Shown: piece by piece, positions 1,584 through 6,207 of the stretch
Position numbering within the stretch: position 1 is the first letter of the stretch
How the letters are laid out: each line of letters starts with the position of its first letter
NCBI GenBank assembly: GCA_945787125.1
Contig: CALZHW010000108.1
Span: 1-12,391, forward strand
Origin: an uncultured Ectothiorhodospiraceae bacterium
GTDB lineage: Bacteria > Pseudomonadota > Gammaproteobacteria > S012-40
DNA: 12,391 nt
Direction: 5' to 3'
The notes under the pieces: generated by a model
What the model saw: the letters and a program-made list of their open reading frames with translations, nothing else
Database searches by the model: none
What the model was told of the DNA's origin: nothing
Translations under genes and position numbers: made by a program

Positions 1584-1625
1584 AAAAAATCCGCCTCATT
1601 GTTGTTAATGAGGCGGATTTTTTAT
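1584..1625 (+). terminator. rho-independent terminator of rpoD
   Basis: The stem ATCCGCCTCATT pairs with AATGAGGCGGAT across the loop gttgtt, followed by TTTTTTAT, beginning 8 nt after the rpoD stop (1574-1576). Confidence 0.9.
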
Positions 1626-1676: not shown

Positions 1677-1753
1677 GGGCCTGTAGCTCAGTTGGTTAGA
1701 GCAGTGGACTCATAATCCATTGGTCGAGTGTTCGAGTCACTCCAGGCCCACCA
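1677..1753 (+). tRNA. ileX: tRNA with anticodon CAT, most likely tRNA-Ile2 (lysidine-modified, ileX-like); elongator tRNA-Met not excluded
   Basis: It has a cloverleaf structure. The acceptor pairs GGGCCTG with CAGGCCC and is followed by the discriminator A and an encoded CCA. The D-arm is GCTC-AGTTGGTTA-GAGC. The anticodon arm is GTGGA-CTCATAA-TCCAT (anticodon CAT). The variable loop is TGGTC and the T-arm is GAGTG-TTCGAGT-CACTC. The C4 and C5 acceptor bases and the TGGTC variable loop resemble E. coli ileX more than metT. The position directly downstream of rpoD matches the E. coli rpoD-ileX synteny. Confidence 0.9.
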
Positions 1754-1967: not shown

Positions 1968-2012
1968 TTGACGCACACCCTTATTTTTACTAATTTCTGT
2001 AATAACAGAAAC
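1968..2012 (+). promoter_or_regulatory. sigma-70-type promoter (TTGACG-17-TAATTT) overlapped by the palindromic operator ATTTCTGT-AATA-ACAGAAAC (1993-2012)
   Basis: The -35 element is TTGACG (1968-1973). After a 17-nt spacer the -10 element is TAATTT (1991-1996). An 18-nt perfect inverted repeat, TTTCTGTAATAACAGAAA (1994-2011), overlaps the -10 and the likely +1, which is the classic autorepressor geometry. It lies 17 nt upstream of the regulator's ATG. Confidence 0.55.
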
Positions 2013-2574: not shown

Positions 2575-2594
2575 ATTTCTGTTAATACAGAAAT
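2575..2594 (+). promoter_or_regulatory. second copy of the palindromic operator (ATTTCTGT-TAAT-ACAGAAAT) in the promoter region of the downstream operon
   Basis: A perfect 8-4-8 inverted repeat lies 25 nt upstream of the ATG at 2620. The RBS AAGGAG is at 2605-2610. A possible -10 element, TATGAAT, is at 2570-2576. The half-sites are identical to those of the operator at 1993-2012. Confidence 0.6.
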
Positions 2595-2619: not shown

Positions 2620-3006
2620 ATGAATTCACTCACCCTTTTCATTATCGAAGTTCTGCTTTGTTTTGGTATTAGTATTTCGGTGATTTATTTACTCAAGCCA
2701 TTACTGCGTGATGTCCTTGTCGAGACCTGTGGCACACAAACACGGGCTGAGTTTTGGGTCATGTTTACCCAGTTGATGTTGATTATCTCGCCATTACTAA
2801 TTGTGATCTACTTTGCCCCCACTCAAGGGCACGACGCAATAAATGCCGCCGAAGCAATACAGAACACATTATTTAGAAGTTTACTAGGGGATTTTATAGC
2901 CCTGATGATGATTGGCCAGGTTATCTGGAAATCAATCCAACGCGAACCTCAACTAAATGAAACTCATGTTGATACGCAACTTGAATCAAGTGAACTGGAA
3001 AAATAA
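2620..3006 (+). CDS. small hypothetical integral membrane protein (about 3 TM helices)
   Basis: The ORF has a strong RBS (AAGGAG). It has hydrophobic stretches LTLFIIEVLLCFGISISVIYLL, FWVMFTQLMLIISPLLIVIYF and LLGDFIALMMIGQVIW. I recognise no family. Confidence 0.6.
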   Translation: MNSLTLFIIEVLLCFGISISVIYLLKPLLRDVLVETCGTQTRAEFWVMFTQLMLIISPLLIVIYFAPTQGHDAINAAEAIQNTLFRSLLGDFIALMMIGQVIWKSIQREPQLNETHVDTQLESSELEK

Positions 3007-3007
3007 T

Positions 3008-4291
3008 ATGAATGTACTTATTACAGGTGCCAGCGGTTTCATTGGTAGCCATATTACCCAGACACTGATTAAGGATGGGCACATCGTTACTGTTTGTGTG
3101 CGAATTCCTAAACTAGCCCAACAACGCTGGCCAAGCGCTCACGCCATCACAACCGACTTCAGTAAAGATCACCATTCATCTGAATGGTTGCCACGCCTTG
3201 ACGATATCGACGTTGTTATCAATGCCGTTGGCATTATCCGTGAAACCGGCTCACAAACCTTTGAAGCACTACACACTGCGGCCCCTTGTGCTTTGTTCAA
3301 GGCTTGTGAGAAAGCAGGTGTAAAAAGAGTCATTCAAATTTCAGCACTAGGTGCGGATGAAACTGCCTTTAGCCAATATCACCTTAGCAAACGCGCTGCC
3401 GATGAATGCCTCATGGAATTAAACGTAAATTGGTCAATATTAATGCCATCGATAGTTTACGGTCCTGGAGCCAAGAGCATGACCTTTTTTAGAGCCTTGG
3501 CGTCCTTACCATTGACGCCAATTATTGATAAGGGTGATCAGCCAGTACAACCTATTCATATAGATGATCTTATACAAGCAGTATCACAGATCATTCAGCC
3601 AGAGACATCTGGCCAACATCAAATCGAATTGGTTGGCCCTAAGGCTATTACGATTAAAGAGATTTATTCACTACTACGCCATTGGCTGGGCTTGGGAAAT
3701 GCAAGGTTCATTTCACTACCCTACCAACTCACACTCATTGCTGGGCGTTTAGGTGGTTTTCTTGGCAACACACCGATGACAACAGAGTCCGTCCAAATGC
3801 TGCGCAAAGGCAATACAGCTGACGTCACTCCATTTATTAAACAGTTTGGCTTTGAGCCCATTAGCTTTGAACAAGCACTGATAAATATACCGGCACAGCA
3901 GACTGATCGCTGGCACGCCGGTCTTTATTTCTTAAAACCGTTATTACGATTTTCTATCGCTTTTATATGGATCTTCACTGGCATCGTTTCTGCCTTTGTT
4001 TTCCCGATAGAACAAAGCTATGCCATGCTGGCCAAAGCGGGAATTACTGGAATCTGGGCGCCAATAATGCTCTATGGAGCAGCAGCTACAGACCTTACAT
4101 TGGGCTTGGCGACACTAATGGCATATCGCCTACCTATCGTTGTATCGATACAGATTGCAGTAATTATTCTCTATTCGATAATTATCACCTTTTCACAGCC
4201 TGAACAGTGGATACATCCATTTGGCCCGGTAAGTAAAAATATTCCATTTATTGTTGCAACGCTTACCATGCTCGTGCTGGAGAGAAAGTAA
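3008..4291 (+). CDS. NAD(P)-binding SDR/NmrA-like oxidoreductase fused to a C-terminal DoxX-like membrane domain
   Basis: The sequence from the ATG at 3008 begins MNVLITGASGFIGSHI (a Rossmann GxxGxxG). It has the YHLSK (YxxxK) catalytic motif and SIVYGPG. The C-terminal 140 aa or so are multi-TM (FIWIFTGIVSAFVF...PIMLYGAAATDLTLGLATLMAY...IAVIILYSIIITFSQPEQWIHPFGPVSKNIPFIVATLTML) and are homologous to the stand-alone ORF at 5815-6207. The ORF-track start at 2957 overlaps the previous gene and is less likely. Confidence 0.75.
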   Translation: MNVLITGASGFIGSHITQTLIKDGHIVTVCVRIPKLAQQRWPSAHAITTDFSKDHHSSEWLPRLDDIDVVINAVGIIRETGSQTFEALHTAAPCALFKACEKAGVKRVIQISALGADETAFSQYHLSKRAADECLMELNVNWSILMPSIVYGPGAKSMTFFRALASLPLTPIIDKGDQPVQPIHIDDLIQAVSQIIQPETSGQHQIELVGPKAITIKEIYSLLRHWLGLGNARFISLPYQLTLIAGRLGGFLGNTPMTTESVQMLRKGNTADVTPFIKQFGFEPISFEQALINIPAQQTDRWHAGLYFLKPLLRFSIAFIWIFTGIVSAFVFPIEQSYAMLAKAGITGIWAPIMLYGAAATDLTLGLATLMAYRLPIVVSIQIAVIILYSIIITFSQPEQWIHPFGPVSKNIPFIVATLTMLVLERK

Positions 4292-4764
4292 TGGACTACG
4301 AAACCCTTAAGTGGCTCCACATATTAAGCTCAACACTATTGTTTGGCACAGGTCTTGGCAGTGCTTTTTATAAGTGGTGCGCAGACCGCTGCGGTAACCT
4401 TCAAGCCATTTCCCATACCAACCGAATCGTTGTCATTGCGGATTGGGTTTTCACCACACCGACAGTGATCATTCAGCCAGTGACTGGCGTGCTACTGGTA
4501 AACACAATGGGAATCGCACTTACTGAACCGTGGCTGCTCGCTACATATATTCTTTACGCTATTGCCGGTGGTTGTTGGCTCCCTGTTGTCTGGCTGCAAA
4601 TCCGTATGCGGGATCTCTCCCTACAAGCTATACAAAAAAACACCCATCTTGATGACACCTATCACCGCCAAGCTCGCCTTTGGTTCTGGTTAGGCATGCC
4701 TGCATTTACAGCTATGGTGATTATCTATTTTCTGATGGTATTTAAGCCAACCATCGGTATATAA
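4291..4764 (+). CDS. DUF2269-like integral membrane protein
   Basis: The N-terminus MDYETLKWLHILSSTLLFGTGLGSAFY resembles the KWLH-type start I recall for the DUF2269 family. It has four predicted TM segments. Its start (TAATG at 4289-4293) overlaps the upstream stop, which indicates translational coupling. Confidence 0.6.
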   Translation: MDYETLKWLHILSSTLLFGTGLGSAFYKWCADRCGNLQAISHTNRIVVIADWVFTTPTVIIQPVTGVLLVNTMGIALTEPWLLATYILYAIAGGCWLPVVWLQIRMRDLSLQAIQKNTHLDDTYHRQARLWFWLGMPAFTAMVIIYFLMVFKPTIGI

Positions 4765-4774
4765 GGAGTACAGA

Positions 4775-5392
4775 ATGTCGAATATTAAAGAACCTGTCAT
4801 CAAGCAAGCATTAGGTGAAAGCTGGGAAGAACTTGCCGAAATCGTCAAGCAACACTATGACATCACCCCAGGTGAATCCTCTAAAATGACCATCAGAGGC
4901 GTAATGGATGAAGTCTATCACTCAAAGATCGCCAAGCTTTTTCTACTGCCCGGTAGAATCTTTGGCGCATTGGTACCCTATAAAGGAACGGACATCCCAA
5001 CCGAGGTACGAAACTGGACATCTGAAAATAATCACAAGGCGATGTTTTGGTATAGAACTCTGGACTTCCCTAATAAACCACCATTGATTTTTGCCTCTCG
5101 TATGGAACACATAACAGATGATGAGATTATTGAATATGTACGTTATGGCATGGGTATACGCATGGGGATGTCGGTTGATGATGGTGCTTTAATTTTTAAG
5201 AGCAAAGGTTATGTGTGGAAGATTGCCGGTATCACAATACCAATTCCAACATGGTTTATCCTGGGTGATGCAGAAATCATCGAAAAAGAAATTTCAAAGA
5301 ATGAGTTTTACATTGACTTCAATATGATCCATCCATTGTTCGGCCGAACATTTTCATACTCAGGTACCTTCTCAATTGCGGAGGATAAATAG
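4775..5392 (+). CDS. soluble hypothetical protein, DUF4166-like
   Basis: The 205-aa ORF begins 11 nt after the previous stop with the RBS AAGGAG (4765-4770). It has no TM segments. The family assignment is from memory of DUF4166, which is often adjacent to NAD-binding dehydrogenases, and is tentative. Confidence 0.5.
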   Translation: MSNIKEPVIKQALGESWEELAEIVKQHYDITPGESSKMTIRGVMDEVYHSKIAKLFLLPGRIFGALVPYKGTDIPTEVRNWTSENNHKAMFWYRTLDFPNKPPLIFASRMEHITDDEIIEYVRYGMGIRMGMSVDDGALIFKSKGYVWKIAGITIPIPTWFILGDAEIIEKEISKNEFYIDFNMIHPLFGRTFSYSGTFSIAEDK

Positions 5393-5393
5393 A

Positions 5394-5825
5394 ATGGCAT
5401 TACCTCCAAACATGAAAGAAGACTGTAAAGTAATTTTGTTTGATGGTGTGTGTAAGCTGTGCAATTTTTGGAGTCAATTCATAATAAAAAATGACCGAAA
5501 AATGATATTCATGCTTGCATCAGTGCAATCATTAGAAGGCCAACAAATACTCAAACATTTCAATATGCCGACAGACCATTTCGACACCATGTTATATGTG
5601 GAAGGCGATCAGTCATTTGAAAAAAGTGATGCCTTTCTTAAAATCGTCAACCAACTAGATCTCCCATGGAAATTATTAAATATATTTCGATTCCTGCCAG
5701 GGTGGTTTCGCAATTGGTTATACGACCGAATTGCGTTAAATCGGTATGCATTATTTGGAAAGTATGACCAGTGCTTACTGCCAACGCCAGACCACGCAAA
5801 AAGGTACTTAAGAAATGGCGACTAG
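5394..5825 (+). CDS. DCC-family thiol-disulfide oxidoreductase (DUF393)
   Basis: The sequence VILFDGVCKLCNFW carries the D-x-x-C-x-x-C motif of DCC/DUF393 proteins. The preferred start is the ATG at 5394, preceded by GGAGGA at 5380-5385, rather than the upstream in-frame ATG at 5376, which overlaps the previous gene. Confidence 0.75.
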   Translation: MALPPNMKEDCKVILFDGVCKLCNFWSQFIIKNDRKMIFMLASVQSLEGQQILKHFNMPTDHFDTMLYVEGDQSFEKSDAFLKIVNQLDLPWKLLNIFRFLPGWFRNWLYDRIALNRYALFGKYDQCLLPTPDHAKRYLRNGD

Positions 5826-6207
5826 TTTAGTAAAAGTCAATCATATTGGCCGTTATGGATTGGCTTTTGTTTTTTTCTACCATGGTTTAATACCCAAAAT
5901 ACTCTGGCCTAGCCAGGTAGAAACTAGCTTAGTAATGGCGCATAATTTTGGTGTGTCTGCGACAATAATTTCGTCCGCTGCAGGTGCAATAGAAATTCTG
6001 CTAGCGCTTACTATTGTTTTTTATATAAAATCCTTAATACCTGTGTACATCGCTGCTCTCATGCTCATAGTTCTACTATTTGATGTTTATTTGGTGATGC
6101 CTGAATTGCTAACAGAAGCTTTCAACCCGGTTTCAACAAACATTTCGGCCTTAGTGTTGTGTTATTTGATATACATTACTCAAACGCGAAAAGCGATTAC
6201 ACTATAA
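5815..6207 (+). CDS. DoxX-like family membrane protein (stand-alone paralog of the C-terminal domain of the 3008-4291 gene)
   Basis: The 130-aa ORF has four hydrophobic helices. YGLAFVFFYHGLIPKILWP...PELLTEAFNPVSTNISALVLCYLIY aligns with the fusion protein's FIWIFTGIVSAFVFP...PEQWIHPFGPVSKNIPFIVATLTML. Its start overlaps the previous gene by 11 nt. Confidence 0.65.
   Translation: MATSLVKVNHIGRYGLAFVFFYHGLIPKILWPSQVETSLVMAHNFGVSATIISSAAGAIEILLALTIVFYIKSLIPVYIAALMLIVLLFDVYLVMPELLTEAFNPVSTNISALVLCYLIYITQTRKAITL

Follow-up and report, generated by a model that had tools for sequence, protein, structure and literature searches.

What do six tightly packed genes for membrane and redox proteins do together, and do they belong together at all? 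The question is raised by positions 2620-6207 (+ strand) of a 12,391-nucleotide (nt) stretch of DNA, hereafter the window, from an uncultured Ectothiorhodospiraceae bacterium (contig CALZHW010000108.1), whose nearest relatives are uncultured marine Gammaproteobacteria and Sedimenticolaceae/Thiodiazotropha. An earlier note on this DNA had described six co-directional, translationally coupled genes and had proposed for them a relay from NAD(P)H to a membrane thiol or quinone, controlled by a GbsR-like repressor. We find that the cluster is a real operon of two independently conserved modules, and not one fixed six-gene unit, and comparative evidence for an autoregulated repressor-operator pair in front of it is strong. 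Its role is best read as redox chemistry at the membrane that draws on NAD(P)H and on thiols.

From its 5′ end, the operon encodes a small transmembrane (TM) protein, a short-chain dehydrogenase/reductase (SDR) fused to a DoxX_3 domain, a DUF2269 protein, a DUF4166 protein, a DCC1-like (DUF393) protein, here DCC, and a stand-alone DoxX_3 protein (Table 1). All six open reading frames (ORFs) run in the same direction, with junctions as described earlier or tighter. The stop codon of the small TM gene (3004-3006) is separated by 1 nt from the ATG of the fusion at 3008; this start, and not the mechanical ORF start at 2957, yields the 427-residue form found in the database and in all homologues. 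Fusion and DUF2269 meet in a TAATG at 4289-4293, with the 1-nt overlap at 4291 that had been pointed out before, and DUF2269 is followed by a 10-nt gap with AGGAG ahead of ATG 4775. DUF4166 ends at 5392, 1 nt before ATG 5394, which is the probable start of DCC (GGAGGA at 5380-5385) in place of the mechanically listed TTG 5376, and the reading frames of DCC and the stand-alone DoxX_3 protein overlap by 11 nt (5815-5825), again in agreement with the earlier description. A promoter/terminator scan inside the cluster returned no candidate above shuffled expectation.

The family assignments proposed for these genes (DoxX-like, DUF393/DCC, DUF2269, DUF4166 and NAD_binding_10) were all recovered above curated cut-offs in a Pfam search. 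DUF2269 (PF10027) scored 198.6 bits over profile positions 2-150 of 150, DUF4166 (PF13761) 124.2 bits over positions 1-184 of 184, and DCC1-like (PF04134) 98.3 bits, with the DxxCxxC motif at its N-terminus. For the fusion, the matches were DoxX_3 (8.4e-27), Epimerase (4.4e-18) and NAD_binding_10 (1.2e-16), the SDR occupying residues 1 to ~300 and DoxX_3 residues ~318-418 (nt ~3959-4261). Both DoxX_3 domains exceed the PF13781 cut-off of 25 bits, the fused one with 94.1 and the stand-alone one with 56.2; they share 25% identity (E 2e-8) and the motif PE..(H/E)xF(G/N)PVSxN, and the stand-alone protein is a distant paralogue of the fused domain. Pfam and NCBIfam scans gave no family for the small TM protein, in which E10, C37, A43, F45 and W46 are conserved, and PDB sequence searches gave no match for DUF2269 or DCC. 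Exact look-ups of the window proteins returned no recorded entry. The invariant residues of DUF2269 are H10 (in TM1), D51, Q62, W96, Q103, K152 and P153. Its Cys95 was considered as a redox residue and rejected because it is replaced in five loci (L011, L012, L016, L024 and L102).

The SDR domain belongs to the NDUFA9-like atypical SDRs: it carries GxxGxxG and YxxxK, its TGASGFIG, R32 and S112/Y124/K128 show little or no variation, and its closest relatives are the NDUFA9/39-kDa proteins. In a PDB search with a profile of the fusion, the best matches were all complex I NDUFA9/39-kDa/NUEM subunits (1.6e-33 to 1e-24), the first of them the NDUFA9-like subunit of an alphaproteobacterial supercomplex. 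An AlphaFold2 model of the fusion (predicted local distance difference score 89.5, predicted template modelling score 0.83) shows an amphipathic helix followed by four TM helices in DoxX_3, and 15 of its 15 top Foldseek matches were NDUFA9/NUEM. The fusion is common, with more than 3000 homologues at E ≤ 0.001, and the 120 of these that were listed are almost all 427-428 residues long. That the fusion has a TM anchor of its own argues against its being a complex I subunit, and the neighbourhoods inspected showed no nuo genes.

Structural modelling likewise places DUF4166 among the calycins, as a predicted antiparallel β-barrel of ten strands around a ligand cavity, like those of nitrobindin and the fatty-acid-binding proteins and with resemblance to LolA, and the protein is presumed from this fold to bind a hydrophobic ligand. 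Across the wider family, G42, R94, E120, P158, G164, H186, G190 and G197 are conserved in at least 96% of members. We found no mention of DUF4166 in the literature searched, which also contained no paper on the cluster, nor on any two of DUF4166, DUF2269, DoxX and DUF393 together; DUF2269 was mentioned in passing and uninformatively, and the DoxX literature found (GIG/bufferin and RpoE2 DoxX operons) concerns another family and context.

To assess co-conservation we compared 28 different loci, the window among them, in which SDR and DoxX_3 are either fused or split. The loci came from exact-protein look-ups, a scan of GTDB species genomes and two plasmid/chromid records, and the window proteins were scored against their ORFs; the patterns of the GTDB scan were generic SDR motifs, and ~60 of 80 loci held unrelated SDRs and were discarded. 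DUF2269 lies next to the fusion in 26 of the 27 loci with room for it, the sole exception being L021, and the pairing extends over Gammaproteobacteria, Betaproteobacteria (Aromatoleum, Massilia, Nitrosomonas, Burkholderia, Trinickia, Comamonas and Cupriavidus), Magnetococcales, Legionella and a Firmicute. The pairing is kept even when SDR and DoxX_3 are encoded separately (L025 and L026), as in Moraxella lacunata (L026, 1833-5899), where a regulator, a fatty-acid-desaturase-family gene, a stand-alone DoxX_3, an operator, DUF2269 and a separate SDR follow one another. The regulator is adjacent to the fusion in 15 of the 28 loci and DUF4166 in nine, all within the closest gammaproteobacterial clade. 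Orthologues of the small TM protein stand directly upstream of the fusion in eight (L001, L004, L005, L006, L018, L084, L085 and L105). DCC and a second DoxX_3 accompany the fusion in the window only and are absent from the 27 other loci.

The closest relative of the window, L084 (ENA contig k141_125399, 4031-5862), encodes a fusion 93% identical to that of the window and carries a class A flavin aromatic hydroxylase and MsrA in the slot of DCC and DoxX_3. The hydroxylase is UbiH/COQ6-like (below cut-offs) and begins 8 nt downstream of DUF4166, with MsrA ~230 nt further on, a context that fits an aromatic or oxidative-stress theme. Genes for an extracytoplasmic function (ECF) sigma factor, a putative anti-sigma factor and a 318-residue DoxX protein are also found nearby. 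In two unrelated lineages, Nitrosomonas (L014, 6459-7958) and a Legionella adelaidensis plasmid (L173, 6793-8307), a flavoprotein of ~500 residues stands directly downstream of DUF2269; the former has DAO and Rieske 2Fe-2S domains by Pfam, the latter is annotated only as an FAD-dependent oxidoreductase, and the flavoprotein may be another optional redox partner.

The last two genes of the operon also occur as a unit of their own. When metagenome contigs were scanned with an alignment of the stand-alone DoxX_3, each of the 48 close relatives with room for it had a DCC1-like gene immediately upstream, most often with an 11-nt overlap (21 cases), as in the window. The pair is also present in Aliikangiella, and Microbulbifer and Hahella have a solo DoxX_3. 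In ~44 of the 48 cases the pair stands by itself, and its coupling to the SDR-DoxX_3 core is therefore optional. The pair is thus an autonomous, usually free-standing two-gene module (Module B), docked here onto the module built around the fusion and DUF2269 (Module A). Base composition is consistent with its later acquisition: GC content is lowest in the window for DCC (0.377) and the stand-alone DoxX_3 (0.374), compared with 0.41-0.47 in the core and 0.48-0.52 in the flanks.

The joint arrangement is rare but recurrent. L092 has the order DUF2269-DUF4166-DCC-DoxX_3 of the window, and L105 (RCMZ01000259.1, 1231-4375) consists of an AraC-type regulator, small TM protein, SDR, DUF2269, DUF4166, DCC and DoxX_3; the SDR there, of 292 residues, has no DoxX domain, and the terminal stand-alone protein is the only DoxX_3 of the locus. 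Two soil-lineage loci have DCC, a DoxX_3 protein and DUF4166 (L149) or a DoxX_3 protein and DUF4166 (L151) side by side in this order; their DoxX_3 proteins are N-terminally extended and their neighbours are F420/NADP- or Zn-dependent dehydrogenases. The families are also joined covalently. An exhaustive profile search for DUF4166 returned 725 clusters, and 18 of the best 150 have the length of a DCC1-like/DUF4166 fusion, with CxxC kept in all 18; five such fusions were confirmed by Pfam. The examples P0314, P0318, P0322, P0337, P0398 and P0316 comprise DCC1-like/DUF4166 fusions (~325-343 residues, CxxC kept) and one DUF4166/Sacchrp_dh_NADP fusion (636 residues). Because adjacency recurs and because Rosetta-stone fusions exist for SDR and DoxX_3, for DCC1-like and DUF4166, and for DUF4166 and a saccharopine-dehydrogenase NADP domain, we consider the five families functionally linked. 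The earlier expectation that the gene set would be co-conserved thus holds for each module and fails for the six genes as one unit.

The gene that precedes the operon encodes a regulator that had been called GbsR-like. Its best NCBIfam match is CudC (NF047500), at 50.7 bits far under the cut-off of 218, and its best PDB match is MJ223 (1ku9), the template used for modelling GbsR-type regulators; for these reasons the term describes a fold class and not an equivalog. No opu or gbs genes lie near the operon in the window. The regulator is the probable ligand-responsive repressor of the operon. The window has two copies of a 20-bp palindrome, ATTTCTGTnnnnACAGAAAT. The core TTCTGTN4ACAGAA occurs exactly twice and nowhere else in the window. 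The predicted operator O1 overlaps a putative TTGACG-17-TAATTT promoter ahead of the regulator gene, a position that implies autoregulation, and the predicted operator O2 stands in front of the structural genes (Table 1).

Comparison across loci connects this palindrome with the regulator. With at most one mismatch it is present in each of the 15 loci that contain the regulator. These range from Thiodiazotropha to Burkholderia, Cupriavidus and Magnetococcales and include both Gamma- and Betaproteobacteria; the palindrome usually stands upstream of both the regulator and the structural genes, and in the operator alignment ATTTCTnTnnnnACnGAAA is invariant. It is absent from the regulator-less loci except L019, which has two sites and no regulator within the fetched locus. 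In Moraxella (L026) the operator goes with the structural genes, ahead of which it lies, and not with the regulator, which is 2 kb away. On the chromid of Cupriavidus metallidurans CH34 (L172, 4310-6715; NC_007974.2, ~394-396 kb), the regulator, both operators, the fusion and DUF2269 are found together. The operator ATTTCTGTn4ACAGAAAT is defined here for the first time.

Any account of the chemistry has to respect topology. No signal peptide was detected on the soluble proteins (SDR, DCC and DUF4166), which are therefore probably cytoplasmic, and any thiol chemistry would accordingly be cytoplasmic and reductive and not an exchange of disulfides in the envelope. Neither DoxX_3 has an invariant cysteine in alignments of homologues, and the conserved cysteine pairs of VKOR/DsbB-type proteins are lacking in both. 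A periplasmic disulfide system like DsbA/DsbB or MauD/MauE was rejected on these grounds, DCC and DUF4166 having no signal peptide and DoxX_3 no conserved cysteine. The thiol/quinone relay proposed in the earlier note has partial support.

Our leading, still tentative, explanation, which we hold at somewhat less than even confidence, is that the operon encodes an inducible reductase system acting on a lipophilic, quinone-like substrate at the cytoplasmic face of the membrane. Module A comprises the small TM protein, the NDUFA9-like NAD(P)H-binding SDR anchored by DoxX_3, and DUF2269, with DUF4166 added in this gammaproteobacterial clade only; Module B contributes a probably cytoplasmic CxxC protein of the DCC1-like family with a DoxX_3 membrane partner of its own. 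DoxX_3 and DUF2269 would together form a membrane dock at which a redox-active substrate soluble in lipid becomes accessible to reductants in the cytoplasm, the SDR delivering a hydride from NAD(P)H and DCC a dithiol. The most plausible substrates are isoprenoid quinones, quinone-like electrophiles or derivatives. DUF4166 may bind or shuttle the hydrophobic substrate or product. Release of the adjacent GbsR/MarR-type repressor from its two palindromes by a small ligand would turn expression on, and the operon as a whole would, when induced, reduce, detoxify or maintain a redox lipid of the membrane.

This reading is suggested by the presence of two cytoplasmic reductant carriers, the SDR and the CxxC protein, each tethered to a DoxX_3 and each with the barrel fused or adjacent to it. 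The assignment of a quinone is by analogy, namely with the position of NDUFA9 at the ubiquinone tunnel, with the Coq11-Coq10 fusion, with MhqP and CatD, and with the hydroxylase of L084. Several points weigh against it. Catalysis has not been demonstrated for NDUFA9, whose NADPH is regarded as structural (PMC8762328); the folds closest to the DUF4166 model bind haem, bilins or fatty acids and not quinones; and the DoxX_3 domains offer no conserved cysteine, while their best-conserved motif is predicted from the model topology at the periplasmic end of TM3/TM4, a long way from the SDR on the cytoplasmic side. Module B, moreover, usually stands alone, about half of the loci lack the regulator, some having one of AraC type instead, and the accessory neighbours vary with lineage (fatty-acid desaturase, DAO-Rieske flavoprotein, hemerythrin, isochorismatase) and indicate no single substrate.

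A bolder version of the quinone reading, to which we give little credence, would make the operon a free-standing bacterial counterpart of the quinone-site machinery of eukaryotic complex I and of the coenzyme Q (CoQ) synthome. An anchored NDUFA9/Coq11-like NADPH enzyme would then act with DUF2269 on the quinone pool or on damaged quinone, DUF4166 would serve as a Coq10-like chaperone, and a DCC1-type thioredoxin with its DoxX_3 dock would provide the thiol input.

The substrate might instead be a tetrapyrrole. DUF2269 would be a HemJ-like haem-b protein, DUF4166 a nitrobindin-like binder, and SDR and DCC would supply reducing power for the reduction, detoxification or trafficking of haem or porphyrin. 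H186 is conserved in 97% of DUF4166 proteins, H10 in TM1 of DUF2269 is invariant, and two of 12 DUF2269 members weakly match UPF0093 (PF03653), which we take to be the HemJ family. These matches (E ~1e-3, 20.5 bits) remain below the cut-off of 34.2 and serve as a lead only; identity between DUF4166 and nitrobindins is only 5-10%, which makes the equivalence of the histidine putative; the neighbourhoods examined showed no genes for the biosynthesis or uptake of haem; and the SDR is closest to NDUFA9 and not to biliverdin or protochlorophyllide reductases. We regard tetrapyrrole handling as unlikely.

Modification or biosynthesis of a membrane lipid is an improbable alternative too. The SDR would here be a keto-reductase, epimerase or dehydratase, its substrate a lipid or isoprenoid headgroup bound to the membrane proteins, and DUF4166 would be a lipid carrier. 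It retains the S/Y/K triad typical of catalytic extended SDRs and weakly matches HpnA and the sterol demethylase SdmB in NCBIfam, DUF4166 is modelled with a fold like that of fatty-acid-binding proteins and LolA, and the Moraxella regulon (L026) includes a FA_desaturase gene. The NCBIfam matches are all far under their cut-offs, however, the desaturase link occurs in one locus only, and a ligand-responsive repressor with an optional CxxC partner suits a stress or detoxification module better than constitutive biosynthesis.

The earlier note had likened the cluster to the mycobacterial DoxX-SodA-SseA complex, and a membrane thiol-oxidoreductase complex of that type, serving the homeostasis of low-molecular-weight thiols, can be imagined from the obligate pairing of a CxxC protein with a DoxX-clan membrane protein and from the precedent itself, as cited in PMC7907618. 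The analogy did not hold: neither SodA nor a rhodanese is encoded in the window or the related loci examined, 27 of the 28 loci that have the SDR-DoxX_3 core lack DCC, and the membrane proteins, besides having no conserved cysteine, are DoxX_3 and not DoxX, the stand-alone protein reaching 18.1 bits against the PF07681 cut-off of 23.6 and the fused domain giving no match. We consider such a complex very unlikely. The chances are slimmer still for a non-catalytic role, in which NADPH bound to the NDUFA9-like domain would be structural or would serve redox sensing, and the complex, with no substrate of its own to turn over, would adjust the activity of a respiratory enzyme, for example complex I. 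No catalysis is known for NDUFA9 (PMC8762328) and the plant homologue DCC1 modulates complex I activity (PMC6603150), but the fusion comes with a membrane anchor and a repressor of its own, no nuo linkage was seen in any locus examined, and none of the 58 sequences compared departs from the catalytic triad. Chance juxtaposition of unrelated genes, which the rarity of the exact six-gene set and the absence of DCC and DoxX_3 from 27 of 28 core loci might suggest and which the earlier note had named as its refutation, is effectively refuted by the near-invariable adjacency within the sub-modules (26 of 27 and 48 of 48), the recurrence of the joint order in L092 and L105, the DCC/DUF4166 fusion proteins and the 1-nt gaps and overlaps of the window. 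What weight is left belongs to some explanation outside the reductase reading and these five rivals.

The remainder of the window (Table 1) adds neighbours of other kinds. Upstream of the operon, the + strand carries the 3′ part of rpoD, with a clear terminator, tRNA-Met and the regulator gene. Downstream, a convergent SPFH/Band_7 gene, whose product has a 160-residue N-terminal extension of no known family and which is not kept beside the operon in other loci, is followed by an rtcBA/rtcR locus, an RNA repair operon divergent from the gene of its RtcR-like activator (identities of rtcB, rtcA and RtcR judged by eye from ORF translations). Between rtcA and the SPFH gene lie ~600 nt of apparently non-coding sequence. 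A tRNA-like element is found there ~265 nt downstream of the rtcA stop, with an anticodon arm that looks aberrant (CTGAT-AGTT-ATCAG) and a second T-arm-like sequence after it; the element resembles the YrlA/Y-RNA-like tRNA mimics encoded beside rsr/rtcBA operons, and the window holds no gene for Ro (Rsr).

Table 1. Coordinates of the operon, its control elements and the neighbouring features in the window.
Feature	Positions	Strand	Support or context
Small membrane protein, 128 residues, ~3 predicted TM helices	2620..3006	+	no family match
NDUFA9-like atypical SDR fused to 4-TM DoxX_3 domain, 427 residues	3008..4291	+	Pfam, PDB profile, AlphaFold2/Foldseek
DUF2269 4-TM membrane protein	4291..4764	+	Pfam 7.4e-59
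DUF4166, probably cytoplasmic, predicted 10-stranded calycin-type beta-barrel	4775..5392	+	Pfam 6.4e-36; model
DCC1-like thioredoxin-fold protein, DGVCKLC (DxxCxxC) motif	5394..5825	+	Pfam 8.5e-28
Stand-alone 4-TM DoxX_3 protein, 130 residues	5815..6207	+	Pfam 5.5e-15
GbsR/MarR-type winged-helix regulator, 175 residues	2029..2556	+	MarR_2 7.9e-11; MJ223 (1ku9) 6e-12
Operator O1, ATTTCTGTAATAACAGAAAC, 20-bp palindrome	1993..2012		just upstream of regulator gene
Operator O2, ATTTCTGTTAATACAGAAAT	2575..2594		in 63-nt gap between regulator and first structural gene
Hairpin and T-run terminator, AAAAAAATCCGCCTCATTGTTGTTAATGAGGCGGATTTTTT	1586..1625		after rpoD
tRNA-Met (CAT)	1677..1753	+	after the terminator
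SPFH/Band_7 protein, 397 residues	6291..7484	-	convergent with operon
T-arm-like sequence, GGGGTTCGACTCCCC	7716..7730		after tRNA-like element
tRNA-like element	7769..7840	-	Rfam tRNA 40.8 bits (gathering score 29); no ARAGORN call
rtcB-rtcA	8104..10408	-	ORF translations
RtcR-like activator	10627..12216	+	ORF translations

Each family in the operon is a known Pfam entry, and no new fold or family is described here. What is new is the modular architecture, the fusion and adjacency network of five families, the NDUFA9 and model-based calycin assignments and the operator; of these, the relationship to NDUFA9, the predicted ligand-barrel fold of DUF4166 and the conserved operator go beyond anything in the earlier note. 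DoxX_3, DUF2269, DUF4166, DCC1-like proteins and bacterial NDUFA9-like SDRs are widespread and functionally unassigned, and are now joined in a single network, for which the conserved repressor and operator provide an experimental handle on the inducer. NDUFA9 itself is a human disease gene with an NADPH-binding SDR fold and no known catalytic role, and the CH34 chromid locus, which has regulator, operators, fusion and DUF2269, offers a tractable bacterial system for this chemistry. Were the operon to prove a free-standing quinone machinery, it would provide the first catalytic function in the NDUFA9 lineage and would assign roles to DoxX_3, DUF2269, DUF4166 and DCC1-like proteins together; were it an ordinary quinone or electrophile reductase, the value would lie mainly in annotation.

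Comparison with known systems places the operon between several of them. NDUFA9/39-kDa/NUEM is the best match of the SDR domain in both sequence and fold, and the two share the NADPH-type GxxGxxG Rossmann motif and YxxxK. NDUFA9, which has NADPH bound, lies above the ubiquinone tunnel at the membrane surface (PMC8762328), and by analogy the fusion may also work at the membrane surface beside a quinone site. In fungi, the NDUFA9-like SDR Coq11 is fused or linked to the CoQ- and lipid-binding Coq10 (PMC6056717), much as the SDR is linked here to the DUF4166 barrel. Unlike NDUFA9 and Coq11, with which identity is ~20-25%, the fusion has a covalent 4-TM DoxX_3 anchor, shares its operon and a dedicated repressor with DUF2269 and shows no linkage to nuo or ubi genes. 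Plant DCC1, the namesake of PF04134, reported to work as a thioredoxin and to change the activity of complex I (PMC6603150), shares family and CxxC with the DCC of the operon and provides a second family link to complex I, whereas the bacterial protein is paired with DoxX_3 or fused to DUF4166. To the mycobacterial DoxX-SodA-SseA membrane oxidoreductase complex, cited in PMC7907618, the operon is related by a DoxX-clan membrane protein as the proposed link between the membrane and thiol chemistry in the cytoplasm; it differs in Pfam family and in its partners, which are SDR, DUF2269, a predicted calycin barrel and DCC in place of SodA and SseA. The regulator has the winged-helix architecture and length (~175 residues) of the GbsR-type, MJ223-like MarR regulators of osmoprotectant genes, from which it departs in failing the CudC cut-off, in having targets other than choline or glycine-betaine genes and in its operator.

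In Bacillus subtilis, MhqR-mhqNOP is a MarR-type quinone and electrophile detoxification operon, and MhqP and CatD belong to quinone- and catechol-response operons. Both are DoxX proteins regarded as putative oxidoreductases (PMC7189620). Like MhqR-mhqNOP, the operon described here unites in analogous form a repressor of the MarR superfamily, a reductase (here a putative one) that uses NAD(P)H and a membrane protein of the DoxX clan, but its reductase would be an NDUFA9-like SDR and not a nitroreductase, its membrane domain is DoxX_3 and not DoxX, it has no ring-cleavage dioxygenase, and its DUF2269, DUF4166 and DCC are without counterparts there. The closest functional analogues are the MarR-controlled reductase/DoxX detoxification operons, from which the operon of the window differs in every component.

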